The translations under genes were made by a program, and so were the position numbers. The notes under the pieces are model-generated. The model saw only the letters and a list, made by a program, of their open reading frames with translations, was not told where the DNA came from and did no database searches. A stretch of DNA of 16,029 nucleotides from a virus (Duplodnaviria; Heunggongvirae; Uroviricota; Caudoviricetes): IMG/VR virus record IMGVR_UViG_2684622579_000002; one strand, 5' to 3'. Shown in pieces: positions 556-16,029 of the stretch (position 1 is the first letter of the stretch; each line of letters starts with the position of its first letter).

Positions 556-596
556 AACCGTAGCACGTCGTATGCAAGAAGATCGTGCTGCGGTTT
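555..596. repeat. Hairpin repeat copy A (about 13 bp stem with one G-T wobble, 16-nt loop tcgtatgcaagaagat) between convergent pin and GIY-YIG genes
   Basis: Positions 558-580 (ccgtagcacgtcgtatgcaagaa) match 1582-1605 (ccgtagccacgtcgtatgcaagaa) except for one inserted base. Stem arms 555-567 and 584-596 are complementary. Confidence 0.6.
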
Positions 597-615
597 ATGC
601 TTATCACTTAAAGAC

Positions 616-1485
<870 letters not shown>

Positions 1486-1580
1486 CTAAGCCTTTGAATT
1501 TACATAGTACAAAAAAGATACTTTTCCTCATAATGTGAATTAATTTTATGTTTCGTTTGATGATTGGACCGGTCTCGAAA

Positions 1581-1614
1581 CCCGTAGCCACGTCGTATGC
1601 AAGAACGTGCTACG
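1581..1614. repeat. Hairpin repeat copy B (9 bp stem with one bulge, 13-nt loop tcgtatgcaagaa) upstream of the GIY-YIG gene
   Basis: Direct-orientation near-identical copy of the element at 555-596; stem arms 1584-1592 and 1606-1613. Confidence 0.6.
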
Positions 1615-1885
1615 ACTGGCTGGTGAACTTCCGATAGTGCGAGTATTGAATGATTTCCAACTGTTATCGATTTTGCGTATTTTTTGCATGAGAGGATTTT
1701 TACCTCCTCCCGCCGATCCTCCATGGCTTTACGCCTGTGTCTCTGGTCTGCTATGTGCCAATAGCGGACATTGCTAACATTATCTAATACACAACAAAAA
1801 ATGTCAGTCTATATGATATCATCTACTGTCTTTTAAATTCCCCACCTGTCTCAGTTATTAGTGTTAGATAAGGAATCAAAAAATT

Positions 1886-2560
1886 ATGAGAGCATATAAA
1901 TTTAGGTCGGCTTCTCAAATAGCATTTACCCTAGATATAATTTTTAATCGTAGGCTTTTTTGCTCTGACTGGAAAATGTTGAATGACCCAATGGAAGGGA
2001 TGTTTGTTTTCTCTCATCAAACATCTGATGGTTACGACTATAAAAAAGAAATTCAGCAGATAATAGAAGAAAAGAAACGGCTTAAGGTTTGTTCTCTTTC
2101 AGCTACATATGAGTCTCATTTACTTTGGGCTCACTATGCTGGGGGGTTTGATGGTTGCGCTATCGAAATTGAAATCCCAGACAATCATCACAGTATTAAA
2201 CAAATTGAATATAGAGGTGTATTTGCAAATTTAGCAATGCCCAATATTTATAGTCCTGATGAACTTGCTAACCAAGTTTTATCCTCTAAATATCGAGAAT
2301 GGGAATACGAACAGGAAGTTAGGATTTTGCAAACGAATGAGTGGTTTTACTTAGATAAACCAGTTCGACGAGTAATAGCAGGGCATAGAATGCCTTCGGC
2401 ATTATTTGAAGCCATGAATATAATATGCAACTCGATGGGGATTGAATTTTGCCGTACTGGAATTGGTGATGAGGGGATTGATGCCGATTATGTTGAGCCC
2501 TCAAAAATTCTAACGCCGAATAATCATCTTGACTGGGATGTACTAAAAAATGACCGATGA
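1886..2560 (+). CDS. Hypothetical protein, DUF2971-like (224 aa)
   Basis: ORF with ATG at 1886, AGGA 11 nt upstream, AT-rich codon usage. LWAHYAGG and EWEYEQEVRIL motifs resemble what I recall of the DUF2971 family; this is unverified. Confidence 0.5.
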   Translation: MRAYKFRSASQIAFTLDIIFNRRLFCSDWKMLNDPMEGMFVFSHQTSDGYDYKKEIQQIIEEKKRLKVCSLSATYESHLLWAHYAGGFDGCAIEIEIPDNHHSIKQIEYRGVFANLAMPNIYSPDELANQVLSSKYREWEYEQEVRILQTNEWFYLDKPVRRVIAGHRMPSALFEAMNIICNSMGIEFCRTGIGDEGIDADYVEPSKILTPNNHLDWDVLKNDR

Positions 2561-2699
2561 ATTAGAGATTTATATGGTTAGCAGAGTGTAAGGCTCAAGA
2601 TTCCCACGCTCAATAACCAATTGATTGTGAATAACTTTCACCCACAATTGCTCGATATGAAACTATGAGCAATTGTGATGTAAATGTATGCAACAGGTT

Positions 2700-3326
2700 T
2701 TATATCTTATTCCCAAGTATTAACTGTGTTGAGCGAGCCATAATTCTAAATATAAATGGCATACCCTCTGTTAGCTCATCGAGTGTTGGCGTTCGCCTGC
2801 TTGCTTCCAAAAGTATTGAACGCAGAAACTCAACTTCTGGATCACATGCAATTTCTTCATCCAATGCCTTAAGTTTGCCTTTTATTTCTTTTATCTCTGA
2901 CAAACTATGGTTGAGGGTTTCACTTCCCTTTATTTCTGAAAGTATACGTCTTTCATGGTAATTAAGTTGCTCACGGAAAAACAATGCCATACTGGCTTTC
3001 TTTACTAAAAGCTCCATTTCCTTTCTTTTTTTCTCAAGATCTAAGATTTCTTCTTGAGTTGAGTTTTTATTCGTTTTTAGGGATTTTAACTCACTAATAG
3101 TCTTAGTTATGGACTCTAATGAAGTGGCCTCAAGCTGTTCTAAATCTGACTGTGTAATAGCAGGCTTCGACAATGAATAGATGCAAACAATAGTCATTAC
3201 AAAACCTACAATAGCCATCCCATTTAAATAAATTGGCAGTTCCAATTTATTTAAATACGCAAATAAACCACCTATAATGAAATAAGCCATACTTAACAAA
3301 ACCAGTACAGTACAAAACCGCCTCAT
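2700..3326 (-). CDS. Membrane-anchored coiled-coil protein (208 aa), function unknown
   Basis: Two N-terminal hydrophobic segments (VLVLLSMAYFIIGGLFAYL and GMAIVGFVMTIVCIYSL) followed by a charged heptad-like region (EEILDLEKKRKEMELLVKK). GAGG SD 6 nt upstream of the ATG at 3324-3326. Confidence 0.55.
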   Translation of the reverse strand: MRRFCTVLVLLSMAYFIIGGLFAYLNKLELPIYLNGMAIVGFVMTIVCIYSLSKPAITQSDLEQLEATSLESITKTISELKSLKTNKNSTQEEILDLEKKRKEMELLVKKASMALFFREQLNYHERRILSEIKGSETLNHSLSEIKEIKGKLKALDEEIACDPEVEFLRSILLEASRRTPTLDELTEGMPFIFRIMARSTQLILGNKI

Positions 3327-3754
3327 TCTAACCTCGTTAAATTTTTTTAGTTTATATGGTTAACCTACTAAAACCTTGTTCCCAGCATTTCGAGCAGGAA
3401 CTTTACGTTCCTCACTTGAGCAAGCTACTGCGGCAACACAATATCTTAACTTAATAAACTTAACTAGCAAGCTACTCATAACGTCCGCTCTTCGCTCATA
3501 ACAGACATAAACTTCAGTTATGGCATAAAGGTATGCATGCTGGGTGGGGAAAGTATGAAGGAAAAGAAGACTGCTGCGCCGTTTGTCGTCACGTTTATCT
3601 TCATTGGCTATGCAAGTCGTAATACAAGGTGGGACAAAACTGAGACACATAAGGCCTCGCAATGGCTTGCAAGGCTTTACATGTTTTGATGTAGTGGGAC
3701 GTGTGAGCGCAGTGTTGATGGGGTAATGCTTTGAATTAGAAGCGGATTCTTATA

Positions 3755-3800
3755 ATTCGTAATGCGAAGGTCGTAGGTTCGACTCCTATTATCGGCACCA
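3755..3800 (+). other. 46-nt 3' fragment of a tRNA-Thr(CGU)-like gene (anticodon loop through CCA) lacking the 5' half: probable att core or direct repeat at an island junction
   Basis: attcgtaatgcgaaggtcgtaggttcgactcctattatcggcacca contains an anticodon loop with CGT, a T-arm GGTTCGACTCC and an acceptor 3' strand TATCGGC-A-CCA. No complementary GCCGATA acceptor 5' strand is present upstream, so this is not an intact tRNA. Confidence 0.7.
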
Positions 3801-3964
3801 TCACCTAGTTTTCCCAAGTCAACCCACATCAACAAAATCATTTAAAAACATATATATTACGTTATTTTCATACGTTTGAGGTCAACCCTTGTCTCTTGAA
3901 ATCAACACGCGGTTGGGGGCACAATCAGGGGCATGTTCTGTTCGGTCTAGGAAATGTGCCCCCA

Positions 3965-5155
3965 ATGATGCTGAATGCCCGCAAGGTTGAAGCTGCGAAA
4001 GGAAAAGAGAAGAGCTACAAGCTGTTTGATGGAGGTGGCCTATACCTTCAGGTCGAACCTAATGGCTCGCGTTACTGGCGTATGAAATACCGTTTTGCTG
4101 GTAAAGAGAAACGATTGTCCTTTGGTGTTTATCCAACAGTCACACTTGCTGATGCCAGACAAAAACGAGAAGACGCGAAGAAACTACTCGCAGCAGGTGA
4201 AGATCCCGGCGAAGTCAAAAAAGCCAAAAAGCAGGCTTTAAATGCAGCGATTGAGACACTTAACCCATTCAGAGAAGTGGCGTTAGAGTGGCACAAAATG
4301 AAATCACCCAAATGGTCTGAGGGCTATGCTTCCGACATCATTGAGGCATTCGAGAAAGACATTTTCCCGCATATTGGGCACAGACCTATAGCTGATATTC
4401 AGCCCCTTGAACTGCTTGAAGTTCTGAGGTTGATAGAAGCTCGAGGCGCTATGGAGAAAGCGAAGAAAGTCCGTCAGCGATGCGGTGAAGTTTTTCGCTA
4501 TGCCATCGTAACGGGTAGGGCAATCTACAATCCGGCACCGGATCTTGCCAGTGCGATGCAAGGACATGAAGCAGTCCACTATCCATTCCTCAAAGCCAAC
4601 GAACTACCGGAGTTCTTTAATGCCCTTAATTCTTATTCAGGAAGTCCAATTGTATTGTTGGGGGCGCATTTACTTATCCTGACAGGTCTACGAACTGGAG
4701 AACTACGAGCAGGTGAGTGGCGAGAGGTGGATTTTGATAATGCGGTGTGGGAGATCCCAAAAGAACGTATGAAAATGCGTAGGAGCCATATTGTCCCGTT
4801 GTCAAAACAAGCATTATCCCATCTCAAAAGTTTGAAAGAACTAACTGGGAACTACCCGCTGATGTTCCCTGGACGCAACGATCCTAGCAAATTTATGAGT
4901 GAAGCAAGCATTAATCAGGTGTTTAAACGTATTGGATATGCAGGGCGTGTTACGGGGCATGGTTTCAGGCATACGATGAGTACAATCCTACATGAGAAAG
5001 GATTTAACAGCGCTTGGATTGAAACCCAGCTTGCTCATTCGGACAAAAACTCTATTCGTGGAATTTATAACCATGCCCAATATCTCGAAGGGAGAAGAGA
5101 AATGATGCAATGGTATGCTAATTATTTATCTGAGCTAATTGGTACTCATAAATGA
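3965..5155 (+). CDS. int: Tyrosine recombinase, P4-type integrase (about 396 aa)
   Basis: N-terminal MLNARKVEAAKGKEKSYKLFDGGGLYLQV is the characteristic P4-integrase N-terminal arm; C-terminal catalytic region has HGFRHTMST and a downstream tyrosine context (IRGIYNHAQY). Immediately follows the tRNA 3' fragment. Start placed at ATG 3965/3968 rather than the TTG at 3896 given in the ORF track. Confidence 0.9.
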   Translation: MMLNARKVEAAKGKEKSYKLFDGGGLYLQVEPNGSRYWRMKYRFAGKEKRLSFGVYPTVTLADARQKREDAKKLLAAGEDPGEVKKAKKQALNAAIETLNPFREVALEWHKMKSPKWSEGYASDIIEAFEKDIFPHIGHRPIADIQPLELLEVLRLIEARGAMEKAKKVRQRCGEVFRYAIVTGRAIYNPAPDLASAMQGHEAVHYPFLKANELPEFFNALNSYSGSPIVLLGAHLLILTGLRTGELRAGEWREVDFDNAVWEIPKERMKMRRSHIVPLSKQALSHLKSLKELTGNYPLMFPGRNDPSKFMSEASINQVFKRIGYAGRVTGHGFRHTMSTILHEKGFNSAWIETQLAHSDKNSIRGIYNHAQYLEGRREMMQWYANYLSELIGTHK

Positions 5156-5976
5156 ATATTTTAAAAATTAATAATACTGATTCTCTGCTCAGAGATTACT
5201 ACCAGTTGGATGAAGCTTCAGAAAAAATTGGTTGTAGTGAAAAGGATATACTCTGGTTTGCCAGAGAACGAGATGTAGAGCTATGCATGGAATTCCATGA
5301 TGATGAGTATGATGTTTCATGTGGTTTGAAGATTGATGGTCAAATGGATGAGTTCTTATCTAATCTGAAATATTTACCACGAGATAGAAATGGCAATATT
5401 ATGTTGTCAGACTTAAGTTCTATAAGAATCCCTGATGAAGATAATTTAATTGATAAAAATGGTTTTATTCGATGTTTCATATCCGGTTTATGGGCTGTTG
5501 ATTATGAATATAAAGATCTGTTAGTTAAGCATGAGGGGCAACCGGATTCTTGGCCTATTCATTTTCTACTGGCGGGTACGCCTAATATAAATTGTAAGGT
5601 AATTCTTTATGTAAATTATGATGAAAAAGAAAATTATTATCTTTTTGAGGTTTTGTGGATTACAAAGGTACAGATTCAAAAATTCATTGATATAGTCTTA
5701 TGCGAACAAAAGCGGATAAAAAACGCCAATAAATATAAATCACAATCTGAGGCGCAAAAACAAAAACATGCTGTTCCTCGAGCTGAAATACTCATGGCTA
5801 TTATTTCGCTCTATCATCGTGATATGAGGCTAAGAAGAGAGAGTCCAGCAGCGATAGCTGATTATCTTTTTCAACATGCCAGTGAGTTCTGGCCTAAGAC
5901 CGGAGAACCGCCTTTGAGCTATGATACTGTTGTTAGTTTGCTACGTAGTTGCATGAAAAACATTAAGTTTAACTAA
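5152..5976 (+). CDS. Hypothetical protein (274 aa), AT-rich, translationally coupled to the integrase
   Basis: ATGA overlap with the integrase stop (ATG 5152, TGA 5153-5155); AT-rich codon usage unlike the GC-rich replication module; no motif I can assign. Confidence 0.6.
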   Translation: MNILKINNTDSLLRDYYQLDEASEKIGCSEKDILWFARERDVELCMEFHDDEYDVSCGLKIDGQMDEFLSNLKYLPRDRNGNIMLSDLSSIRIPDEDNLIDKNGFIRCFISGLWAVDYEYKDLLVKHEGQPDSWPIHFLLAGTPNINCKVILYVNYDEKENYYLFEVLWITKVQIQKFIDIVLCEQKRIKNANKYKSQSEAQKQKHAVPRAEILMAIISLYHRDMRLRRESPAAIADYLFQHASEFWPKTGEPPLSYDTVVSLLRSCMKNIKFN

Positions 5977-6101
5977 ATATTAACAATTATTGTGGCTAAT
6001 GATTTTGGATTTTTTTCATTAGTCACATTTTTCTCATTTATAACCTATGTTTTAATTTTCCGTGTTGAAGCCAATAGACTTAGATAAACGGAGAATGATG
6101 A

Positions 6102-6392
6102 ATGTTATCTAAACATGATAATACTACTTTGCAACGACCTTCAATGGATTCTCTGATCGATATGAAGTTTATTACTTCCGATTGTTTATTAAGTGATAAA
6201 TGGATTTATCGATTGATTTCTCTGAATCGCTTTCCAAAACCTATAAAAATAGGTCGGATGTCACGATGGCGCGCTGCTGATTATTATAAGTGGCGAGATG
6301 GGTTTGAAGAAAACTCAGGTCAACATTTTGAGGGAATGAGAAATAAGGCAAGAGCAATTAATAAAGGGAATAGATTATCACCTACTCCCTAA
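6102..6392 (+). CDS. alpA: AlpA-family phage transcriptional regulator (small DNA-binding protein)
   Basis: IYRLISLNRFPKPIKIGRMSRWRAADYYKW resembles the AlpA/phage regulatory protein HTH signature; GGAG SD 8 nt upstream of ATG 6102. Shorter starts at 6144 or 6162 are possible. Confidence 0.7.
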   Translation: MLSKHDNTTLQRPSMDSLIDMKFITSDCLLSDKWIYRLISLNRFPKPIKIGRMSRWRAADYYKWRDGFEENSGQHFEGMRNKARAINKGNRLSPTP

Positions 6393-6424
6393 GCCTTAAT
6401 TGATAGTTAGTAATATTTAACTGA

Positions 6425-6598
6425 TTAGCCTTTAGGGTCAATCCCGCGTGATTGGAGTTCTTTGCGTAAAATTCTTTTAATCCAAGTTGCCAACGCGCTA
6501 TCTCCATCTTTGCGCATTTCGTTTTCGAGTTGCAACCTAAAATCGTCGGTAAGACGCATTTGGAATGGTGGAGAACGTTTCTCTTGTGGTGTTGACAT
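6425..6598 (-). CDS. Arc/MetJ-type ribbon-helix-helix DNA-binding protein (57 aa), absent from the supplied ORF track
   Basis: Hand-translated minus-strand ORF MSTPQEKRSPPFQMRLTDDFRLQLENEMRKDGDSALATWIKRILRKELQSRGIDPKG; the PPFQMRL segment resembles the Arc N-terminal beta-strand motif (PQFNLR). Start codon overlaps a palindromic operator. Confidence 0.6.
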   Translation of the reverse strand: MSTPQEKRSPPFQMRLTDDFRLQLENEMRKDGDSALATWIKRILRKELQSRGIDPKG

Positions 6599-6638
6599 GG
6601 TAATTACCCTAGAATATGATGACTACATGGTAATTACC
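6595..6638. promoter_or_regulatory. Two copies of the 14-bp repeat ACATGGTAATTACC, each containing the perfect palindrome GGTAATTACC, 30 bp apart: putative operators
   Basis: Palindromes at 6599-6608 and 6629-6638; the first overlaps the start codon of the Arc-like gene, the second lies in its promoter region, within the divergent intergenic region 6599-6729. Confidence 0.55.
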
Positions 6639-6666
6639 ATTGTAAGTATAGTTCGCTTGTAAAAGC

Positions 6667-6701
6667 AATGCCCGATTGTGCGGGAACACAAATCGGGCAT
6701 T
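6667..6701. promoter_or_regulatory. 14-bp-stem inverted repeat (AATGCCCGATTGTG / CACAAATCGGGCATT, loop cgggaa) in the leader of the replication operon
   Basis: Arms 6667-6680 and 6687-6701 are complementary with one bulge; located 29 nt upstream of ATG 6730; no U-tract follows. Confidence 0.45.
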
Positions 6702-6729
6702 TAACCAACCGTTATAAGAGGTAACGAAG

Positions 6730-6906
6730 ATGGCTAAACAGAAGTGTACCTGGTTATTTGCGGCGATCAACCGCAGTCAACGCAATGCCCGTCCTGTGAT
6801 GTTAAGGATCACCGCAGATAACGAGCGGTCAGCGCGGCGCAGACTTGCCCCGGACTATGTACTGAGCTTTGCCGGGCGCATTCCCTGCGGAGGTGAACAT
6901 GCGTAA
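6730..6906 (+). CDS. Small protein (58 aa), first gene of the replication operon; possibly Icd-like
   Basis: Hand-translated MAKQKCTWLFAAINRSQRNARPVMLRITADNERSARRRLAPDYVLSFAGRIPCGGEHA; AAGAGG SD 8 nt upstream; stop overlaps the next gene start (ATGCGTAA). Family assignment is from memory and weak. Confidence 0.5.
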   Translation: MAKQKCTWLFAAINRSQRNARPVMLRITADNERSARRRLAPDYVLSFAGRIPCGGEHA

Positions 6907-7258
6907 TTATCCGCACCCCGGCGAACGCTGGCAGCATGAACGTGGCTGGACGGTCACGATTATCCGATTAATAGAAGCCTCGCCCTCTGTGGCGCTGGTT
7001 AATCCTGAATTCAGCTGTGAAGTGCTGATACGTCATGACAGCGACAACCAGCTTTCTTCCTGCCCTCTGGCATGGTTTGAACAGCGGTATACGCGCCTGT
7101 TTGATGTACCGCTCTTTAAGCCTGCACCAGCTCCTGCAGGCGGTAGTGGTTCCGGCCCGCTGACACTGCATCCGTCTGTGCTATTTATCCGCTGGCGGGA
7201 GCGTAGCATATGGCGTTCTGCTGAGCCTGACGACGGTCACTATTCAAAGTTTCTCTGA
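6899..7258 (+). CDS. Hypothetical protein (120 aa)
   Basis: ATG at 6899 preceded by GGAGGT; GC-rich codon usage consistent with neighbours; the ORF track extended it to an upstream alternative start at 6869. Confidence 0.5.
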   Translation: MRNYPHPGERWQHERGWTVTIIRLIEASPSVALVNPEFSCEVLIRHDSDNQLSSCPLAWFEQRYTRLFDVPLFKPAPAPAGGSGSGPLTLHPSVLFIRWRERSIWRSAEPDDGHYSKFL

Positions 7259-7289
7259 CAAAATACCGCTGAAAACGGAGTAATCCACG

Positions 7290-7574
7290 ATGAATATTTC
7301 AAACGGGCACAACGGTGCTCAGGGCCACACTTTGCCTGAAAAACACAATACCGGTGCTTTTGCCTATGGGTTGTCAGAGGACAGTTTCGGAAAGCTGACC
7401 CGCGCAAGAAATGCCTGCGACATGCTCCAGCTTCTCTTTTCTGAATACCCGTCTCAGGCCGGAGCACTGGACGCTGGCTGTGCGCATGGTGTCGCCGCGC
7501 TGATGGAGTACCTGCTGGCAGATTTGACGGATATTGCACACAGTTGCGCACTGATTGAAGGAGGTGCCAGATGA
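7290..7574 (+). CDS. Hypothetical protein (94 aa)
   Basis: ATG 7290 with GGAG 8 nt upstream; stop overlaps the next start. Confidence 0.5.
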   Translation: MNISNGHNGAQGHTLPEKHNTGAFAYGLSEDSFGKLTRARNACDMLQLLFSEYPSQAGALDAGCAHGVAALMEYLLADLTDIAHSCALIEGGAR

Positions 7575-7954
7575 ACCAGCCGCAGGTTTCCATTTTCCCG
7601 GCAGAAATGACCACCGCGCTTTACCGGCGGGCTATTGCTTCAGCATGGCGGCAGAAAATGCTGAACGAAACTGGCAGTGATCAGTATGGTCCGCACAGCC
7701 TGACGGTGGAGCGTATTGAAATGGCCATTGCGCTGCATATCGAGTGCGTACTGATTAACGAGTACGGCGAAGTGCAGGGCGCCGCTACCGCGCTGGCACT
7801 GCTGACTGACATGCTGGAGCCGTCACTGCTGACCGCGCCGCCGGTACTGACCGCGCGCGGCTGTGAAGTGATGGCGGAGATGTACCGCACGCTTCCGGCG
7901 GCCTTTGATGACTTCTGCAGTACCGGTGTGACGTTGTATGAGGGGGAAGTATGA
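7571..7954 (+). CDS. Hypothetical protein (127 aa)
   Basis: ATG 7571 with GGAGGT SD; ATGA overlaps at both ends indicate translational coupling into the primase gene. Confidence 0.55.
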   Translation: MNQPQVSIFPAEMTTALYRRAIASAWRQKMLNETGSDQYGPHSLTVERIEMAIALHIECVLINEYGEVQGAATALALLTDMLEPSLLTAPPVLTARGCEVMAEMYRTLPAAFDDFCSTGVTLYEGEV

Positions 7955-10623
7955 CAATACGGACGGTTACGCAGATTTCAGCCGCCGCACGGGGGAAATG
8001 GCCCGTTATTCTGCAGATGCTGCGTATTGATGTACCTGAAAACGGCAGGCACGGTCCCTGCCCGAAATGTGGGGGCAAGGATCGTTTTCGCCTTGATGAC
8101 CTTGACGGGCGCGGGACGTGGATCTGCAGCCAGTGTGGCAATGGTGACGGTCTGGATCTGGTTAAGCTCGTAACCGGTTACAGCGTCAGAAAGGCTGCGC
8201 AGGAGGTGGCGCAGGTGCTTAATGTGCCGGATGTGCAGGAACTGCCTGTTAAGCCTGCCAGACAAAAAGCCCCTAAACGAGACATGGGTCTTACCGTGGC
8301 GGCGCTGATGAAAGAGAGCCACACGGGAGAAAGCGCCTATCTGACAGGAAAAGGGTTCGCCGGATACCCGGCCTCTCTGACCGGAAGCGTGCAGCATATC
8401 AGCGGTAAGGATTTTCCTGCCGGTTCCCTGCTGTTACCACTCACGACCAACACCGGAGCCGTGACCGGTGCACAGCTTATCGCCCCGACGGGTGAAAAAA
8501 GCATACTGCCCGGCAGCACGATGAAAGGCGCGTTTGTGTCGCTCAGCCCGTTACCGTCTGAACCACCGGTACAGGTGGTGATTACCGAAGGTTACGCTAC
8601 GGCGCTGACGGTAAGCCAGCTCACTGCCGGATGCGTAGTGGCTGCCATATCTGCGGGCAACCTGCCCAATGTGGCGCAGTCGCTGCGGGCACGCTGGCCT
8701 GAGGTAAAAATTATCATCGCCGGTGATAACGATTTTCAGGACGGGGGTGAGAATCCCGGCAGAGCCTTTGCTGAACGGGCGGCAAAAGCTGTTGGCGGCT
8801 GGATGACGCTGCCACCAGGAGAGATTAAGGCTGACTGGAATGACTTTCATCGGGAGCACGGTATTACCCGTGCCCGTGAAGCCTTTCGCAACGGTCTGGT
8901 ACTGTGCGGGGAAGGCCGCACGCAACTGCCGCACGGGTTCCGTCTTACCCAGGAATATCTCTGGTATGAAAAGCAGGTACAGCGCAACGGTGAGACGGAG
9001 ATCCAGAACGTCAAAATATGCAGCCCGCTGCGCGTGACGGCAATTACCTGCGATGCCGATGGCGGTAACTTCGGACGACTGCTGGAATGGGAAGATACGT
9101 GGGGTGAGTGTCGCCGCTGGGCGATGCCAATGGAAATGCTGAGCGGCAGTGGTGAGGAACTGCGCCGGGTACTGCTGGTTAACGGGCTGTCTTATATCAG
9201 CACCACCGGTGAGGCACGCGCACGCCTGATGGAATATATCTCACTGTGTAAACCGGAACGCCGCGTGACCTGCGTCAGTCGTACTGGCTGGCATGGTCAG
9301 GTTTACGTCCTGCAGGATGAGGTCAGCGGTGAAGGTGCAGAGGGTGTCATTCTCCAGACCACTTCCGTGCAGGGGCGTGATTTCCGCGTGTCGGGCACAA
9401 CAGAGGAATGGCGGGAGCATGTATCCCGCTACTGTACCGGCAACTCCCGCGTGGCATTTGCTGTCAGCCTGGCCTTTGCTGCACCACTGTTACGGCTGGT
9501 TGGTATGGACGGCGGCGGCTACCACCTCAAAGGGGAATCGACAGACGGTAAGACCACCACCATGAAAGCGGCAACCTCCGTCTGCGGCGGGCCTGACTAC
9601 TGGCAGACATGGCGGGCCACCGGCAACGCGCTGGAGGGATGCGCCAGCCGCCGTAACGATGCCGCCATGATGCTTGATGAGATCCGGGAAGTTGACGGAC
9701 GCGAGGCAGGCAATATCGCCTACATGCTGGCAAACGGTCAGGGCAAGGGCCGTGCCGGTACGGACGGTGAGCTGCGTACCCGTAAGCAGTGGCGCCTGTT
9801 GTTCTTTTCAACTGGCGAGTTGTCTCTGACCGAACATGCGGCAAAGGCCGGTGAGCGTACTTTTGCCGGGATGGAAGTCAGGATGATCCAGATCCCCAGC
9901 GATTCCGGGAAGTTTGGCGTTTTTGAGGAGCTGCACGGCTTCGACAGCGGCAAGGCTCTGGCAGAGCATCTTGAATGGGCCACGTCCTGCTACTACGGTT
10001 CGCCGTTCCGGGAGTGGCTGAAAGCACTGACCGCTGATCTTAACGGACTAACGGCACAGGCAAAATCGCTGATGAAGGAATATGCTGCCGCCCTGACTCC
10101 GAAAGATGCAGGCAATCAGGTGGGCCGGGCTGTGAACCGCTTTGCACTGGTGGCGATGGCAGGTGAACTGGCAACCCGTCTGGGTATCACCGGCTGGCCT
10201 GAGGGTGAAGCACTGCGGGCAACCCGCGTCTGCCTGAACGCATGGCTGAAAGATCGCGGGCACACCGCCAATCAGGAAGATATCGCCGCACTGGAGCAGG
10301 TTCGCAGTTTCTTTACCGCGAATCAGTACAGCCGCTTTGCAGACTGGTATGACGAGCGCAACCGCCCCGGCAATATGGTGGGCTGGCGCAGGGTGGAGAA
10401 AGGCAGTACCGCGCAGGGCACGGAAGCTGTCACTACGTTCTATGTCATGCCGTCCGGCTGGAAAGAAATCTGCAGGGGATTTGACCCGCGCAAGGTGGCG
10501 CGTCTGTGCGCAGATCGTGGATACCTGCTGCCCTCCACTGATGGCAAACTCCAGACAACCATTCGCCCGCCAGAGATGAATCCCCGCAGGCTCTATGTCT
10601 TCAACAGCGAGGTGCCGGGTTAA
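7951..10623 (+). CDS. P4-alpha-like primase-helicase (890 aa): zinc ribbon, TOPRIM and C-terminal P-loop NTPase domains
   Basis: N-terminal CPKCGG...CSQCG zinc-binding motif; TOPRIM-like VVITEGYATALTV and IIIAGDNDFQD; Walker A-like GESTDGKTT. GAGGGGGA SD upstream of ATG 7951. Confidence 0.9.
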   Translation: MTIRTVTQISAAARGKWPVILQMLRIDVPENGRHGPCPKCGGKDRFRLDDLDGRGTWICSQCGNGDGLDLVKLVTGYSVRKAAQEVAQVLNVPDVQELPVKPARQKAPKRDMGLTVAALMKESHTGESAYLTGKGFAGYPASLTGSVQHISGKDFPAGSLLLPLTTNTGAVTGAQLIAPTGEKSILPGSTMKGAFVSLSPLPSEPPVQVVITEGYATALTVSQLTAGCVVAAISAGNLPNVAQSLRARWPEVKIIIAGDNDFQDGGENPGRAFAERAAKAVGGWMTLPPGEIKADWNDFHREHGITRAREAFRNGLVLCGEGRTQLPHGFRLTQEYLWYEKQVQRNGETEIQNVKICSPLRVTAITCDADGGNFGRLLEWEDTWGECRRWAMPMEMLSGSGEELRRVLLVNGLSYISTTGEARARLMEYISLCKPERRVTCVSRTGWHGQVYVLQDEVSGEGAEGVILQTTSVQGRDFRVSGTTEEWREHVSRYCTGNSRVAFAVSLAFAAPLLRLVGMDGGGYHLKGESTDGKTTTMKAATSVCGGPDYWQTWRATGNALEGCASRRNDAAMMLDEIREVDGREAGNIAYMLANGQGKGRAGTDGELRTRKQWRLLFFSTGELSLTEHAAKAGERTFAGMEVRMIQIPSDSGKFGVFEELHGFDSGKALAEHLEWATSCYYGSPFREWLKALTADLNGLTAQAKSLMKEYAAALTPKDAGNQVGRAVNRFALVAMAGELATRLGITGWPEGEALRATRVCLNAWLKDRGHTANQEDIAALEQVRSFFTANQYSRFADWYDERNRPGNMVGWRRVEKGSTAQGTEAVTTFYVMPSGWKEICRGFDPRKVARLCADRGYLLPSTDGKLQTTIRPPEMNPRRLYVFNSEVPG

Positions 10624-10649
10624 GGCTTTGCGTGAGTCTTATTTATTAA

Positions 10650-10845
10650 GGGTAACAGGTGAAACAGGTGGAACAACCGTATTTTACAGGGCTGAATCTG
10701 TTCCACCTTCTGAAATAGTGAGGTGGAACAGATGTAACGCCAGCCAATCCGCTGTTCCACCTTGTTACCCGCGATGTTCCACCGGTGCAGTGTATATAAA
10801 TGCTTTATAAAACAAATGGGTAACACATGTTTCACCTGTTACACC
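10650..10845. repeat. Iteron cluster: five copies of the 9-mer GGTGGAACA/TGTTCCACC in alternating orientation, bounded by a 15/16-bp inverted repeat, with an adjacent AT-rich tract
   Basis: GGTGGAACA at 10667-10675 and 10722-10730; TGTTCCACC at 10699-10707, 10753-10761 and 10775-10783; the forward-reverse pair recurs with 55-bp periodicity. Outer inverted repeat GGTAACAGGTGAAACA (10651-10666) versus TGTTTCACCTGTTACA (10828-10843). AT-rich tract gtgtatataaatgctttataaaacaaatg at about 10790-10817. Confidence 0.65.
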
Positions 10846-10933
10846 GCATCAGGGACATAAAGCAGACTGAAACAGAGGGCATTTTTATCTGGCTGGCTTT
10901 CATAGCCACGTCTGAATAACCGCAAGCGCCCGT

Positions 10934-10951
10934 TGTACCAGCCACCACACA
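10934..10951 (+). promoter_or_regulatory. TGT-N12-ACA dyad (TGTACCAGCCACCACACA), candidate Ogr/Delta-dependent late promoter element for the sid/psu/ogr operon
   Basis: The motif centre lies about 80 bp upstream of ATG 11024, compatible with the roughly -55 placement of this element in P2/P4 late promoters. Confidence 0.4.
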
Positions 10952-11023
10952 CTGAGCACCGATAGTGTGCTTGTGTCAGCCACGACACAATTGACGTAAC
11001 GAACCAACCCGACAGGAGAAGTC

Positions 11024-11767
11024 ATGAACAACACCGCAGTGAATAACAACCTTTCCACTTTTCCGGCTGTAACGCAGCGGGCACTGGAAACCATGAACAC
11101 AGCCAGAAACGCATGGCTTGAAGCACGTCGTCAGCAGAAAGCGGCAGCGGATAATATTGCGACAATCCGCCAGCGTCGCGCTGAAATGGAAGCCACGACG
11201 AACACACTGAATGAGGAGTGGCGCACGCTGTTTCGTGAAAGTCAGGGCGTGGTCTCAAAGGAAATGAAAAAACTGCGCACGGAAATTGCGCTGGGACGAG
11301 AAACTCTTGAGGATTTTGATGAGCTGCTGGAGGCTCAGGAAAGCGAAAATGCACTTTTGCCGCAGAAAGCTGCGGAATTAGCCGGAAAGTATATCCACGC
11401 GCATAACATCCTTGTGGATATTCGCGCAAAACAAATCTGGGAAGATTTTATGCAGTCGCATGGAAAAGCGCTTATTCAGACGCTGAGCCTGCTTAAATCC
11501 ACAATGGGCCGGGAAGCCAGTGCCGTTGTGGGTGTGGTGAATTCAGTTAATGACCCGGACACAGTGCTGAAAGACTTTATTCATAAACATATCACCAGAC
11601 CGGCTCTGGCTAACGATGCGATGCCTGAGCAGGACCCGGTGTTTAAACTGGCGGGAGTTGCCCCGGATTATGCGGCGCGTCTGGATTTCAGTAATCAACT
11701 CTCTCCGGCAGCTATGCATAAAATTAAGGTTCGTCAGGAACTTGCTGAGAAGGAGAAAGCAGTATGA
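11024..11767 (+). CDS. Sid/Psu-family protein (247 aa); by size and position probably a Sid-like capsid size-determination scaffold
   Basis: GGAG SD 5 nt upstream; shares NAWLEARRQQKAAAD and DFMQSHGKAL motifs with the downstream Psu-like protein; ATGA coupling to the next gene. Confidence 0.6.
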   Translation: MNNTAVNNNLSTFPAVTQRALETMNTARNAWLEARRQQKAAADNIATIRQRRAEMEATTNTLNEEWRTLFRESQGVVSKEMKKLRTEIALGRETLEDFDELLEAQESENALLPQKAAELAGKYIHAHNILVDIRAKQIWEDFMQSHGKALIQTLSLLKSTMGREASAVVGVVNSVNDPDTVLKDFIHKHITRPALANDAMPEQDPVFKLAGVAPDYAARLDFSNQLSPAAMHKIKVRQELAEKEKAV

Positions 11768-12315
11768 CGGCCCGAGGCACGCCTGACCAGGCACTTACCA
11801 GTTTTCGGAATGCCCGTATTCTGTGGGCCGGACATAATGAGAGCCGAAAAGCCGTTGAACAACAGATAACATCTCTCCTCGCTGCCACAGAAAAACCAGC
11901 AGATTATGCCCGACAGCTCGAATTACTGCGGGAACGTCTGGATGTGCTGAAATGGCAAATTAACTGTGCTGCGCGCGAATGCATTTACTCGCAGCATTTA
12001 CTGATGGAGGCCTGCACAGAAGCCGCTCTCAGCAATTTTATGCAGGCGAATGGGGCAGCCCTGACATCTGCACTGGCTCCGTTCCTGAAGGGGCGCGGAG
12101 GGGTTGACGTTGCGTCCCGTATATTACGCAGTGCTCTGGTTCGCCAGCTGGCAATAACACCGCCTGAAATTGCCGGGGATTATCGTGAGATCCTGGATGA
12201 ATCCGGTTTGATGCCTGACCCCGGGATGATTCGTGATTGCCAGGGTTCTTACACCCCGGCACAACATCTGCGTTTTCAGCAACGCCTGAATGACATTAAC
12301 GATATACAGGAGTGA
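11764..12315 (+). CDS. psu: Psu-like polarity suppression / capsid decoration protein (183 aa)
   Basis: LKWQINCAARECIYSQH and FMQANGAALTSALAPFLKG match my recollection of P4 Psu (VRKWQVNQAAGRYI and FMQQHGTALAAALAP); similar length to P4 Psu. Confidence 0.65.
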   Translation: MTARGTPDQALTSFRNARILWAGHNESRKAVEQQITSLLAATEKPADYARQLELLRERLDVLKWQINCAARECIYSQHLLMEACTEAALSNFMQANGAALTSALAPFLKGRGGVDVASRILRSALVRQLAITPPEIAGDYREILDESGLMPDPGMIRDCQGSYTPAQHLRFQQRLNDINDIQE

Positions 12316-12320
12316 TATTA

Positions 12321-12593
12321 ATGGCACTTAAATGTCCGGAATGCGGTACAGTTGCACACGCCAGAACAGCAGCCTATGAAGCTCCGTCAGTTAAACGCTC
12401 GTGGTATCAGTGCCAGAATCTGGAATGTTCCTGCACATTTACGGCACTGGAGAGTGTGGATAAGATAATCATGAAACCCCGGCGCAATGAACAGCTATCA
12501 GACAAAGCACAATCCCCGGAAAAACAACAGCAAACGCTCAATCGCTATGGCTCCGCGTCAAAACTGTCAAGCCGTCAGCAGATTCCTGTCTGA
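12321..12593 (+). CDS. ogr: Ogr/Delta-family zinc-finger late transcription activator (90 aa)
   Basis: CPECG...HART...YQCQNLECSCTF matches the Cys4 pattern of P2 Ogr (CPLCQ...HART...HQCQNVNCSATF); AGGAG SD 8 nt upstream of ATG 12321. The ORF track started it at the GTG at 12312. Confidence 0.8.
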   Translation: MALKCPECGTVAHARTAAYEAPSVKRSWYQCQNLECSCTFTALESVDKIIMKPRRNEQLSDKAQSPEKQQQTLNRYGSASKLSSRQQIPV

Positions 12594-12613
12594 TTAGAAA
12601 AAAACGCCCACGT

Positions 12614-12640
12614 AATCCCGGTCGAGTACCGGGATTTTTA
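12614..12640 (+). terminator. Rho-independent terminator after the ogr-like gene
   Basis: aatcccggt / accgggatt 9-bp stem with a 5-nt loop, followed by a T-run (gggattttt) 20 nt after the stop codon. Confidence 0.65.
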
Positions 12641-13050
12641 ACACCTTTTCCCTGGCTGGCCTGAGAGCGCATGAGTGCATGTCTATGGCGCATGAAAATG
12701 CATGAGCCTTATGCACCTTTTTTGAGGCGAAAACCTTTGTGTGGTGGTATCTGAGACGATTTATGGCATGCATGAAAACCAGTCTGTTAAGCGAAGCGGG
12801 CAGGCGTGCGGGGCTGCCCGCGATAGCACTGAAATCAACAGGTAAAACTATTTTTTATTAGTAGTGTAAACTGGGAGCGAACGGACTCTGTCATGCTGTA
12901 TCATCCTGTAATGATCAATCTCACTGGTGTCTGTATAGATGTCAACCAGTTTCGACGGCTGTGTCTAACTTAAAATTAGAGCTTAATCAAGTTTTTCCTC
13001 GAGAATACTTTTAAAAGACAATGAGTTATGAGAAAGTGGAGGCTGTCACG

Positions 13051-13079
13051 TTGGTCATATGTAACACTCCACGTAATCT
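13051..13079 (+). promoter_or_regulatory. Putative sigma70-type promoter (TTGGTC - 17 nt - TAATCT) for the three-gene operon
   Basis: -35-like TTGGTC 13051-13056, 17-nt spacer, -10-like TAATCT 13074-13079, about 44 nt upstream of ATG 13123. Identified by eye only. Confidence 0.3.
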
Positions 13080-13122
13080 TAATCGCTTTGTAAATGTTGA
13101 AGTTAATTAATAGGGAAAACTG

Positions 13123-14082
13123 ATGCTAACCAGGGCTGAAAATATAAGAAAAATCACAAGCTATTTAGCTATTCTCTCAAGAGAGGTTGAGATTAGTGCC
13201 TCCCTCAATCTTTTGGATATCAACGTTCAAGCGGAATCTTTTTATAGAGATTTCTTAAACTTATGTTATGGATATAATTTAAGAAATACCAATAGTGAAG
13301 AGCAAAACTACCAAGCAATAGATCTTGCTGATGAAGATCGGAAGATTGCTATACAAGTAACTTCAACTTCTGACTTGGGAAAAATTAAGAATACAGTTGA
13401 TGGATTTATAAAAAGTAAGCAATATGAAAAATATGATAGACTAATTGTACTGAATATAACTGAAAAGAAAAAGCACAGATTGAAAGAGTATGGAATAGCC
13501 GGGTGCTATGTAATTAATATCAAAGATGATGTATGGGATTATAAGGATATAATTAGAAAGATAAACGATTTGAATGATTGTGATATATCAACAATATGCT
13601 CATTTTTGGAACGTAATATTAATACTAAAGCTGCTGATAAACCGCCGAAAGAAGTCACAACTATGTTTGCGATGATTGAATTATTGAGTGATGATGCTCA
13701 CCCATTGGCAGGAAATGGATTTATTGAAGAGCCTAATCCTGAAAATAAAATATATAAAAGATTTTCAGATTATTCAGAGCGGTTGATTGGCTTATATACT
13801 GGGTTAGCTCCATTATATAGTGGGATATTTAAGTCAATAAAAGAACAGAGCGATATTGGTATCGTAAGGTACCAAAAGATGAGTTTGTATTTAGAGTCAT
13901 TTAGTGATAAGGTCTTAAGAAGCCATGGTGGAGATCCTATCTTGGCGCTTAATTATTTAAAAGAATATTTTTCTAAACAACTGAGCCAGAGAAATGTAGA
14001 TTACGATGAAACAGCTATCAAATTTTTCTTAATTGAGAATTTAATTGCATGTAACGTCTTTCCTAATTCGGAGATTCTTTGA
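13123..14082 (+). CDS. Hypothetical protein (319 aa), putative effector of a three-gene system; N-terminal region possibly SMEK-like
   Basis: AGGGA SD 6 nt upstream; AT-rich codon usage. N-terminal LNLLDINVQAESFYRDFLNLCYGYNL...IAIQVTSTSD resembles what I recall of SMEK-domain proteins of ABC-three-component systems; unverified. TGATG overlap with the next gene. Confidence 0.65.
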   Translation: MLTRAENIRKITSYLAILSREVEISASLNLLDINVQAESFYRDFLNLCYGYNLRNTNSEEQNYQAIDLADEDRKIAIQVTSTSDLGKIKNTVDGFIKSKQYEKYDRLIVLNITEKKKHRLKEYGIAGCYVINIKDDVWDYKDIIRKINDLNDCDISTICSFLERNINTKAADKPPKEVTTMFAMIELLSDDAHPLAGNGFIEEPNPENKIYKRFSDYSERLIGLYTGLAPLYSGIFKSIKEQSDIGIVRYQKMSLYLESFSDKVLRSHGGDPILALNYLKEYFSKQLSQRNVDYDETAIKFFLIENLIACNVFPNSEIL

Positions 14083-14330
14083 TGTTAAGTTTTTTTTCGA
14101 AAGATGAGGATTTGACAAAATCCCCTCCTGTTGTAGGGGCTAAAATTCTTAATTTATTTGACGAAACAAAAAAAGAAAAAATTAGTATTTTCGATTTAGC
14201 AAAAGAATTAAAGAAAAACAACTCTCTAGGAGTGCGTGCAATTTATTTTGGAATGGTCTTTCTTTATACTCTTGATCTTATCGATTTCGATGAGCCATAT
14301 GTGATAAATAAAAATGTTAAGAATAAATAA
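14082..14330 (+). CDS. Small protein (82 aa), putative middle/adaptor component
   Basis: ATG 14082 overlaps the upstream TGA (14080-14082); its 3' end overlaps the ATPase start by 17 nt; AT-rich. Confidence 0.55.
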   Translation: MLSFFSKDEDLTKSPPVVGAKILNLFDETKKEKISIFDLAKELKKNNSLGVRAIYFGMVFLYTLDLIDFDEPYVINKNVKNK

Positions 14331-16029
14331 ACTATATAGCATACCAGAATCTTTTGAGCCAGTAAGCTTTGATAGTGGCATCAATATCATCTTAGGTGAA
14401 AAAGATGTTTCATCTAACAAAACTAATGGAGTGGGTAAAACTCTTTTAATAGAGTTTATTAATTTTTGTTTATTAAAAGAATTTAAGTCGAGTAGAGTTT
14501 CTAAAATTCCTCATTCTGATTTTTCGAAAGACATTTTGATATGCCTTGATTTTAATATTGATAATATTAACATTATATCCCAGCGTTCTATTGGGAAACA
14601 TAATGAGCCAACACTTGTAATAAATGGAAAAACAATAGAGTTTAGTGGATTAGATGATGCGTTATCTCATTTAAGCAATCTTATCTTTAAGAATAGTAAG
14701 GGTATACTTCATCCATCATTTAGAGCGATGCTGGGGCCTCTGATACGCGATGAACGATCTGAATTTAAATCTATTGTTGAGTGCTTCGACACAAAATTAC
14801 ATATACCTGCTGACTATACTCCTCATCTTTATTTGTTAGGTATTGATATTGCTCCCTATAAAGAGGCAAAGATTTTACAACGAGAAATAGATGATTTATC
14901 AACTACAAAAAATAAAATAAAGAGAGATATTGAATTTCTGACGGGAAAAAAAATTAGTTCTGCAAAGGCAGAGGTTAATGATCTTAAATCAAAAGTTGAA
15001 CATATCAGAAACGCTATGGATGCATTTGATAGCGATAGCAGTTATGAACTTATCAAAGATGAAGTAGAAGAATTAGAAAGTTCTTTAGAAGAGTTGCGGA
15101 ATAAAAGAACAATACTTAAGTTAGAGCTTTCAAGAATAAATGCTCTCGTTGGTGAAGTATACATAAATGATGATGAAGTAGTTGAAATTTATAATAAATT
15201 TAAAGTTGGATTAGGTGATGCTATCAAAAAAGAACTTAATGATGTTATTTCATTTAAGAAAAAAATAGATCACTTCCAAAACACTTTGTTAAATACGCGA
15301 AAAGAAACATTACTTTCTGAATTGCGTAAGATATCAGATAAGCTATATACAGTAAATAGACTTTATAAAGAAAAAGCTAGTGTTTTTGAGCAGGCGGGGG
15401 GGTTTAAAAGCCTGAAAATTTTAATAATGACTTATCAGAAAAAGTTAGAGGAGTATTCACAGTTATCTTCATTGCTTAAAAAATTTGAAGATTTCGATTC
15501 TAAATGGAAAGTTAAGAAGTCAGAACGCTCTTCTATGATAATTTCGTTAGATCTTTCTATTATGGATAACGAAAAAACGATTGAATCTTTTGAGGAAACC
15601 ATTTTATCAATCCATGAATATGTTTTTGGAAATAGAAAGTGTTCTTTCGAAATTAAGGCGACAGAGAAGAAAGAAACTATCTCAATGGATTTAAGAATTG
15701 ATGATGACGGTAGTCATAGTAATGAGCGAGAAAAGGTTTTCTTTTATGATTTGGCTCTTTTACTTACAGAAGAAACGTTTCGACGTCACCCTGGATTATT
15801 AATTCATGATAATATTTTTGATGTGGATCAAGATACATTAATTAAAAGCTTGAATTATTTGGCAGAGAAATCCAGTTGCTTAAATGATGCACAATATATT
15901 TTGACGTTAAATAGCGACAAAATTAGTGAAATTGATAAAAGAGATTTGAAACTAGATATTAACTTCTATAAGCGAGCTTCGTTAACTAAAATAAATAGAT
16001 TCCTGGGAAGGCATTATCAAGAAATATAA
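14314..16029 (+). CDS. ABC/SMC-type coiled-coil ATPase (571 aa; the ORF ends exactly at the window edge)
   Basis: N-terminal P-loop region NIILGEKDVSSNKTNGVGKTLLIEF; long charged helical middle (EAKILQREIDDLSTTKNKIKRDIEFL...); C-terminal Walker B-like GLLIHDNIFDVD. TAA at 16027-16029. Confidence 0.8.
   Translation: MLRINKLYSIPESFEPVSFDSGINIILGEKDVSSNKTNGVGKTLLIEFINFCLLKEFKSSRVSKIPHSDFSKDILICLDFNIDNINIISQRSIGKHNEPTLVINGKTIEFSGLDDALSHLSNLIFKNSKGILHPSFRAMLGPLIRDERSEFKSIVECFDTKLHIPADYTPHLYLLGIDIAPYKEAKILQREIDDLSTTKNKIKRDIEFLTGKKISSAKAEVNDLKSKVEHIRNAMDAFDSDSSYELIKDEVEELESSLEELRNKRTILKLELSRINALVGEVYINDDEVVEIYNKFKVGLGDAIKKELNDVISFKKKIDHFQNTLLNTRKETLLSELRKISDKLYTVNRLYKEKASVFEQAGGFKSLKILIMTYQKKLEEYSQLSSLLKKFEDFDSKWKVKKSERSSMIISLDLSIMDNEKTIESFEETILSIHEYVFGNRKCSFEIKATEKKETISMDLRIDDDGSHSNEREKVFFYDLALLLTEETFRRHPGLLIHDNIFDVDQDTLIKSLNYLAEKSSCLNDAQYILTLNSDKISEIDKRDLKLDINFYKRASLTKINRFLGRHYQEI

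Follow-up and report, generated by a model that had tools for sequence, protein, structure and literature searches.

The window analysed here is a stretch of 16,029 nucleotides (nt), filed as IMG/VR virus record IMGVR_UViG_2684622579_000002, which lies in the Escherichia coli chromosome at the proA–thrW locus. Its positions 3755–16029, the subject of this report, are 99.6–100% identical to three complete genomes and carry an element related to the satellite phage P4 (NC_001609). Read from its left attachment site (attL), the element comprises an integrase gene (int), orf274, an alpA-like gene, an open reading frame (ORF) of 57 amino acids (aa) on the opposite strand with the early promoter, an icd/kil-like gene, two further ORFs, a cnr homologue and a primase-helicase gene. 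These are followed by iterons, a Psid-like promoter, sid, psu, delta, a terminator, the cos region, a variable hotspot and the right attachment site (attR), and all core genes are on one strand. The genes that an earlier note on this DNA had regarded as the hallmark of a P4-type satellite (int, alpA, primase-helicase, iterons, sid- and psu-like genes, and an ogr/delta-like gene) are all present, alpA by a weak match.

No intact tRNA gene is detected in the window by ARAGORN. Positions 3755–3800 (plus strand) are exactly the last 46 nt of thrW, a tRNA-Thr gene, and constitute the longest thrW suffix in the window; the thrW core of SfV-family phages is 46 bp long. In VE-T9 (L001) and VG12A2 (L002), the same element is located directly beside an intact thrW. 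In NADC1036, the same junction comes after a complete prophage of the myovirus type, which has an HK97-type capsid, Mu-like baseplate genes, ymfQ/ymfR and pinE. For this reason, the thrW fragment in the window is the attR of an SfV/e14-like prophage next to it in tandem and not a scar made by the satellite. In other words, 3755–3800 is the attR of the left-hand prophage, which also carries the attL of the satellite. The att core of the satellite itself, CTCCTATTATCGGCACCAT, occupies 3783–3801 (plus strand), and in L001, L002 and L009, the identical 19-mer bounds the element on either side, with the second copy some 175 bp after the stop codon of the gene for a DUF2326 ATPase. The window ends at 16029, exactly with that stop codon, so that the last ~190 bp of the element, including attR, are cut off. 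The satellite thus spans from 3783 to about 16203 in window numbering (12.4 kb); the att-to-att distance in VE-T9 is 12,420 bp. The earlier note had placed a P4-type satellite beside a tRNA-Thr 3′ fragment and expected a second att copy beyond 16029. This is borne out by the copy of CTCCTATTATCGGCACCAT in the identical elements and by the relatedness of the primase N-terminus and the late proteins to those of P4.

The arrangement of the genes is not that of P4. The P4 prophage reads int(+), cII, beta/gop, cos, psu(−), delta(−), sid(−), vis(+), cI/kil, epsilon, orf151, cnr, alpha(+), crr and att; its late operon, placed between int and vis, points away from the early operon, whereas both run in the same direction in the window element. 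The attP site is also placed differently: it is upstream of int, between the hotspot and int, in the window element but between alpha and int in P4. In the circular form, cos and int still flank the hotspot, with attP between the hotspot and int.

The junction that joins the primase gene, the iterons and sid (probe 10250–11350, counted at ≥80% coverage) is present in 325 of 5,426 complete E. coli genomes (about 6%), and the exact core with the same integrase in 61 genomes. The same layout occurs in Shigella, Enterobacter, Citrobacter, Pseudocitrobacter and Pantoea, with the primase 95–100% identical, and also in IMG/VR contigs. In the Sanji element, it is found at a tRNA-Leu gene, with an integrase 71% identical to P4 Int and retron St85 in the hotspot; in NADC1036, it is found at thrW, where the cargo genes encode an AAA ATPase and an S8 peptidase. 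Vertical inheritance of the collinear copies at one locus is contradicted by the tRNA-Leu copies and by the occurrence in other genera. The collinear layout is a widespread P4-like sub-lineage and not an accident.

The primase-helicase gene (7951–10623, plus strand) encodes a P4-alpha-like Zn-ribbon and Toprim region fused to a DUF927 helicase (Pfam). The similarity with P4 alpha is restricted to aa 5–316 (38% identity), and the helicase part of P4 alpha consists of D5_N, DUF5906 and Pox_D5, as against DUF927 in the window protein. In the PDB, the latter matches 8tch (“Pathogenicity island protein”) and 5dgk (“Active helicase”), while P4 alpha matches 7ola. DUF927 represents the Cch/SaPIbov1-Rep class and D5_N the Cch2/SaPI5-Rep class (PMC7581432, the source on which the link between DUF927 and Cch/SaPIbov1 Rep rests here). 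Judged by its domains, the replicase is a chimera of a P4-type primase domain and a SaPIbov1-Rep/Cch-type helicase.

Immediately 3′ of the primase gene, there is an origin-like iteron cluster (10652–10845, unstranded), in which seven copies of TGTTYCACC in both orientations are arranged around an AT-rich stretch. All seven copies fall within 10658–10836; the expected number is 0.2. The annotated type-1 repeat of P4 is TGTTCACC. Iterons directly downstream of rep likewise form the origins of Staphylococcus aureus pathogenicity islands (SaPIs) (PMC7581432). The cluster is the only one: no second iteron cluster, matching the separate ori and crr of P4, was found. An ORF at 10595–10810 overlaps the iterons and was rejected as a gene.

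The Psid-like late promoter (10934–10989, plus strand) has two activator dyads of the form TGT-N12-ACA, located at −90 and −52 relative to the ATG of sid. P4 and all collinear relatives have them at −90/−52, and the element of E. coli O157:H7 86-24 (L017) at −88/−50; the TGT and ACA arms are conserved, and the interiors differ. TGT-N12-ACA is the consensus of Ogr-dependent P2 late promoters (PMC3931495). As the motif by itself is not enriched window-wide (7 occurrences versus 3.7 expected), the Psid-like assignment is based on the conserved geometry. A second late promoter, of the PLL-like kind, was not found upstream of the early genes.

The first late gene (11024–11767, plus strand) encodes a homologue of the capsid size determination protein Sid, which matches phrog_6165, the family of P4 Sid, over the full length (E-value 8e-93) and has P4 Sid as its best PDB match (7jw1, E-value 1.2e-9), ahead of Psu. 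The identity with P4 Sid is 24%, and a tblastn search of 50,697 phage records returned nothing at an E-value of 1e-5, such that the homology is visible only with profiles or in a small database. Next comes a Psu homologue (11764–12315, plus strand; Pfam Psu, E-value 1e-44; phrog_6366, E-value 4e-70; 30% identity to P4 Psu) and then a single-domain Ogr/Delta zinc-finger activator (12312–12593, plus strand, with the RefSeq start at 12321; Ogr_Delta, E-value 1e-15). The latter has one Ogr_Delta stretch where P4 delta has two, and it covers phrog_603 at 63–138 only, in line with the single-domain activator proposed previously. A hairpin with a T-run (12614–12636, plus strand) is the likely terminator of the late operon.

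The late genes are indeed in the order sid, psu, ogr, as the earlier note had read them, versus sid, delta, psu in P4, but the idea that this order marks a divergent lineage does not survive comparison. Amongst complete P4-like elements, 77% have the P4 order, and the commonest exception, at 20%, is the psu/delta swap (de Sousa & Rocha 2021, PMC8628076). The O157:H7 86-24 element is an example of this swap variant: its late operon has the same order, including the one-domain ogr (92% DNA identity and 88–91% aa identity), but it is laid out as in canonical P4, with a divergent early operon whose last gene encodes a P4-alpha-type primase (73% identity to P4 alpha). Its late operon is followed by cos, an ABC-3C-type hotspot and int, which lies beyond the hotspot. 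In the collinear relatives L010, L012, L014 and L015 (~10001–11040 in each; Enterobacter, Citrobacter and Pantoea), ogr directly follows sid. The ORF after ogr in the Enterobacter soli relative (L010) has no Psu match in Pfam, the other sid–ogr relatives have no psu match by tblastn at an E-value of 1e-5, and L011 and L013 carry a 28–29% Sid/Psu-like ORF after ogr. The published swap, the canonical layout of the O157 element and the sid–ogr relatives, taken together, imply that gene order does not define a lineage: the late module is exchangeable and varies within lineages, and sid-psu-delta is one interchangeable version of it and not a lineage marker. The point about psu/delta order is already published and of little consequence; what is under-described is the collinear sub-lineage with the DUF927 helicase. 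What truly sets the element apart from P4 is that its layout is collinear, that a DUF927 helicase has taken the place of the P4 one and that epsilon is not detectable.

Downstream of the terminator, we identified a cos region of the P2 family (12674–12822, plus strand), composed of a GCATG-repeat block (12674–12705) and the box CATGAAAACC...AAGCGGGCA|GGCGTGCGGGG (~12770–12813). Both align with P4 cos and with the ends of the P2-like phage Cartapus. The homology amongst E. coli elements ends at 12822, and the variable region thus begins right after cos; a variable hotspot next to cos has been described for P4-like elements (PMC9122126).

At the other end of the element, the tyrosine integrase (3896–5155, plus strand; RefSeq start ~3965) belongs to the P4 Int family, with the Pfam domains Arm-DNA-bind_3, Phage_int_M and Phage_integrase and 43% identity to P4 Int. 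The low-GC orf274 (5152–5976, plus strand; GC 0.34) is at the P4 cII position as a member of the int–alpA module and has no match in Pfam, PHROGs, PADLOC, NCBIfam or PDB. A 94% identical protein (aa) is encoded beside the same integrase in a Citrobacter, and therefore, orf274 is not free cargo but travels with int and alpA. An IS1A copy interrupts orf274 in VG12A2 (L002 19586–20367). The AlpA/Vis-like helix-turn-helix regulator or excisionase (6102–6392, plus strand), a weak match, is assigned to phrog_66 (E-value 1.6e-6) and shares 32% identity with P4 ORF88 over 41 aa.

The divergent 57-aa ORF (6425–6598, minus strand), annotated as a coding sequence (CDS) in RefSeq, is a candidate repressor gene. 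In L004, L010 and L015, a homologue of 54% identity occupies the corresponding position; searches of Pfam, PHROGs, PADLOC, NCBIfam and PDB gave no match. A YlcI/YnfO-family ORF takes its slot in the Sanji element. Adjoining its start is the candidate early promoter (6592–6640, plus strand), with TTGACA-17-TATGAT at 6592–6620 as the best sigma-70 match in the element (11/12) and two flanking, operator-like GGTAATTACC palindromes; the 57-aa ORF and these palindromes may constitute a repressor and operator pair. The ORF at 6462–6662 was rejected as a gene, being antisense to the annotated 57-aa ORF.

In elements with other integrases, the shared homology (98.7% identity) is limited to the section from ~6670 to 12822, which implies that int, orf274, alpA, the small ORF and the promoter are exchanged as one module. 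Positions ~6670 and 12822 are sharp recombination boundaries, and the integration/immunity module and the hotspot are each swapped as a unit. Of the two sections that had been proposed as variable cargo, 13123–16029 does belong to the cos-adjacent hotspot, although the latter starts at ~12823 and not at 13123, whereas 5152–5976 is co-inherited with int and alpA.

The first gene behind the early promoter on the plus strand (6730–6906) encodes a small Icd/Kil-like protein, a homologue of the P4 kil region with 54% identity to the C-terminus of the P4 “cI” ORF, labelled “host cell division inhibitor Icd-like” in RefSeq. It is followed by two conserved early ORFs (6869–7574, plus strand; phrog_30862 and phrog_14861), neither of which is an epsilon homologue, and by a DUF5375 gene (7571–7954, plus strand), the homologue of P4 ORF106/Cnr (Pfam, E-value 2.2e-13; both in phrog_5991; 40% identity). 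P4 Cnr controls copy number via alpha; the Cnr homologue has been kept here although the helicase and origin-binding part of the replicase has been replaced. A homologue of ORF151 was not detected.

In P4, the immunity RNA is the sense-strand CI RNA. A C4/CI-type RNA of this kind was not found in the window by Rfam, the sole match being sub-threshold, symR-like and on the minus strand (6664–6735; 31.6 bits, with a threshold of 61). At this place, we propose instead a candidate cis-antisense RNA (6664–6735, minus strand), made up of a covarying hairpin (6664–6703) and a stretch complementary to the ribosome-binding site (RBS) and AUG of the Icd/Kil-like gene. The hairpin is more stable on the minus strand in 16 of the 17 distinct variants, by a mean of 4.9 kcal/mol. 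In an alignment of 12 variants (15 pairs), these are formed in 91% of cases on the minus strand versus 28–46% with slid partners. Six pairs are changed on both sides, and the observed covariation score was reached by none of 500 shuffles, a figure that is not to be read as a probability given that the variants are related to one another. There are 26 G·U pairs on the minus strand versus four on the plus strand, for which the pairing falls to 79%. A consensus by MAFFT and RNAalifold on 80-nt segments missed the hairpin owing to indels; the evidence comes instead from a trimmed alignment and from folding each sequence singly. Element types differ in the sequence of the stem. Strand asymmetry, covariation and the symR-like match together point to a cis-antisense RNA, and the sequence suggests that it covers the RBS and AUG of the Icd/Kil-like gene. 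One copy of a 16-nt direct repeat (GTAAAAGCAATGCCCG at 6659–6674) is the 5′ arm of the hairpin, and the other (GTCAACGCAATGCCCG at 6776–6791) is inside the icd-like ORF; the repeat recalls seqA and seqC of P4, with the similarity strongest in this variant only.

The element shares with P4 homologues of Int, Vis/AlpA (by a weak match), Kil/Icd, Cnr (ORF106), the primase N-terminus, Sid, Psu and Delta, as well as the Psid dyads, a P2-type cos followed by an accessory/defence slot, TGTTCACC-like iterons 3′ of the replicase gene, integration at a tRNA 3′ end and a genome of ~12 kb. It differs from P4 in the lack of detectable epsilon and ORF151 homologues, the one-domain Delta, the sid-psu-delta order, the DUF927 helicase and the single iteron cluster. 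The definition of P4-like elements by seven components tolerates one or two missing components (de Sousa & Rocha); integrase, Sid, Psu and Delta/Ogr are found here, AlpA as a borderline match, and epsilon is not. As for alpha, the primase N-terminus is homologous, while the helicase and origin-binding part is of another family. A P2-type cos is present beside a variable hotspot, and the prototypical order of P4 (int, psu-delta-sid, alpA, epsilon, alpha) is absent; the order observed is the collinear int, alpA, pri-rep, ori known from phage-inducible chromosomal islands (PICIs). With the SaPIbov1-type PICIs and Cch of SCCmec, the element has in common the DUF927 self-loading helicase, the origin directly downstream and the collinear sequence of integrase, regulator and replication genes. 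Unlike in those systems, the helicase is fused to a P4-type DnaG/Toprim primase, the hijacking genes are those of P4, the host is Gram-negative and the helper is presumably P2-like.

From its sequence and conserved architecture, we consider it likely that the region is a complete, probably mobilisable 12.4-kb P4-like satellite prophage, residing at thrW in tandem behind an SfV/e14-like prophage and belonging to a widespread collinear sub-lineage. A number of observations weigh against this. The attR itself is outside the window, the AlpA-like protein scores 20.6 bits in Pfam where the cut-off is 21, and neither BLAST nor PHROGs yields an epsilon (Ash) homologue (P4 epsilon is phrog_10016; the early ORFs are in other PHROGs). 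The cos box is one G shorter than the P2/186-type box, due to which compatibility with a helper terminase is unproven, and the 19-mer at the cos cut site, which is predicted between 12802 and 12803, was found in IMG/VR only in satellite copies and in no helper. The capacity of the small P4 capsid is quoted as ~12 kb, and 12.4 kb is at the upper end (PMC9122126). Finally, two of the three full-length copies carry a damaged gene (orf274 in VG12A2, the ATPase gene in VE-T9), from which it follows that decay does occur.

The IS1 insertion and the split ATPase gene in sister copies, the missing epsilon homologue and the fact that the element is locked in a tandem array with another prophage could also be taken as signs of a decaying, cryptic P4-like remnant that is no longer mobilisable and owes its layout to rearrangement during decay. 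We regard this as unlikely. The core ORFs are all intact in the window, as are the att cores, cos, the Psid dyads and the iterons, and the identical layout recurs at two tRNA sites with different integrases and cargo; its presence in six genera with a near-identical primase (95–100%) bespeaks recent horizontal spread.

One could also think of a PICI-type island of Gram-negative bacteria that has acquired the late module of P4 and would behave like a PICI. The collinear int, alpA, primase-helicase and origin, and the helicase of the SaPIbov1-Rep class with iterons directly downstream would fit such an origin, and the authors of SatelliteFinder note that P4-like elements score as “Type C PICI”. 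However, the early region is P4-like (Icd/Kil, 54%; Cnr/DUF5375, 40%; primase N-terminus, 38%; Int, 43%), hijacking and packaging functions are all of the P4 type (Sid, Psu, Delta, Psid and the P2-type cos followed by the hotspot), and the packaging and redirection genes of PICIs (terS, ppi, rpp, capsid-morphogenesis genes) were not detected in the Pfam and PHROGs scans, which makes this scenario very improbable. A third possibility, for which one could invoke that surveys report a highly conserved P4 order with others rare and often blamed on neighbouring integrases (PMC8628076), is that a canonical P4-like element was inverted or translocated once, in this strain, or that the assembly is at fault. 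It is refuted by the occurrence of the junction in 325 complete E. coli genomes, other genera and IMG/VR contigs, and can practically be dismissed.

If the region is the P4-like satellite we take it for, a life cycle can be sketched, all the functional steps of which we infer from homology and conserved architecture. The integrase, by homology, would recombine at the 19-bp core in the 3′ end of thrW. Repression of the early operon in the lysogen would act at two places, the 6592–6620 promoter and the Icd/Kil start, and would be due to the small divergent ORF, the cis-antisense RNA or both. With an active P2-like helper, the promoter geometry suggests that either the Ogr of the helper or the element's own one-domain Delta would activate Psid via the TGT-N12-ACA dyads. 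Going by the established roles of the P4 homologues, Sid, as an external scaffold, would make the helper capsid smaller, and Psu would decorate the capsid and inhibit Rho. The Toprim primase–DUF927 self-loading helicase would fire the iteron origin, as suggested by its homology to SaPIbov1 Rep/Cch and by the position of the iterons. To judge from the cos alignment, the helper terminase would cut the P2-type cos and package the 12.4-kb genome. The cos-adjacent slot holds an exchangeable, presumed defence system, here ABC-3C/Lamassu-like.

Nearly half of E. coli genomes carry a P4-like satellite, and these satellites are a major vehicle of anti-phage defence systems. Our literature search returned no paper in which “P4-like” and “DUF927” are joined. 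Published surveys analysed gene order for the A and B types only, and the commonest “Type C” is without epsilon and alpha; to P4-specific profiles, the collinear lineage may appear as such a “Type C” lacking epsilon/alpha or amongst the “rare organisational variants”. Tools for detection and delimitation assume P4 gene order, P4 alpha and epsilon, and collinear elements may therefore be mis-typed, mis-delimited or dropped; mis-delimitation is possible because the hotspot of the integrated element is between cos and attR and not beside int. As a tentative proposal, which we hold to be possible but not probable, the collinear, DUF927-helicase, epsilon-less elements would form a distinct, functional P4-like sub-family that the surveys do not resolve. 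In it, the hijacking module of P4 would be combined with a SaPIbov1-type replicon, and immunity would be exerted by a cis-antisense RNA at the Icd/Kil start, with a stem that varies by element type, and not by a sense CI RNA. The sub-lineage lets two replicon types be compared that naturally occur with the same hijacking module, and it may supply a second RNA-based immunity design in satellites.

The cargo in the window consists of three genes on the plus strand: a SMEK-domain protein (13123–14082; SMEK_N, Pfam E-value 5e-46), an MC6-like middle component (14079–14330; 20.9 bits, with a Pfam cut-off of 27.2) and an ABC ATPase with DUF2326 and AAA_23 (14314–16029; PDC-M68B in PADLOC). ABC-3C systems have been grouped with Lamassu, and SMEK is amongst the listed short Lamassu effectors. 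The SMEK protein, the small middle component, the ABC/SMC-like ATPase and the location in a cos-adjacent satellite hotspot are as in ABC-3C/short Lamassu systems. At variance with these, the MC6 match is below the Pfam cut-off and PADLOC v2 gives no Lamassu call, only PDC-M68B for the ATPase. By sequence criteria, 13123–16029 is tentatively classed as an ABC-3C/short-Lamassu-like cassette. Sister elements have a retron, an AAA ATPase with an S8 peptidase, or other genes in the hotspot instead. In VE-T9 (L001 25560–27274), the ABC ATPase is annotated as two overlapping CDSs, so that the gene is probably frameshifted there.

Left of the satellite, window positions 1–3754 are the right end of the tandem SfV/e14-like prophage. 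This section contains the pinE invertase gene (1–555), a GIY-YIG protein gene matching PD-T4-3 (616–1440, minus strand; E-value 3e-140), a PDC-S31 protein gene (1886–2560) and two unassigned ORFs (2700–3326 and 3360–3662, minus strand), and it has the appearance of a second cluster of defence genes, located at the end of a prophage. On the opposite side, in VE-T9, a lambdoid prophage with its own integrase (L001 27481–42218) directly follows the attR of the satellite. This makes a second type of tandem arrangement at thrW, which could mislead an integrase-based delimitation of satellites.

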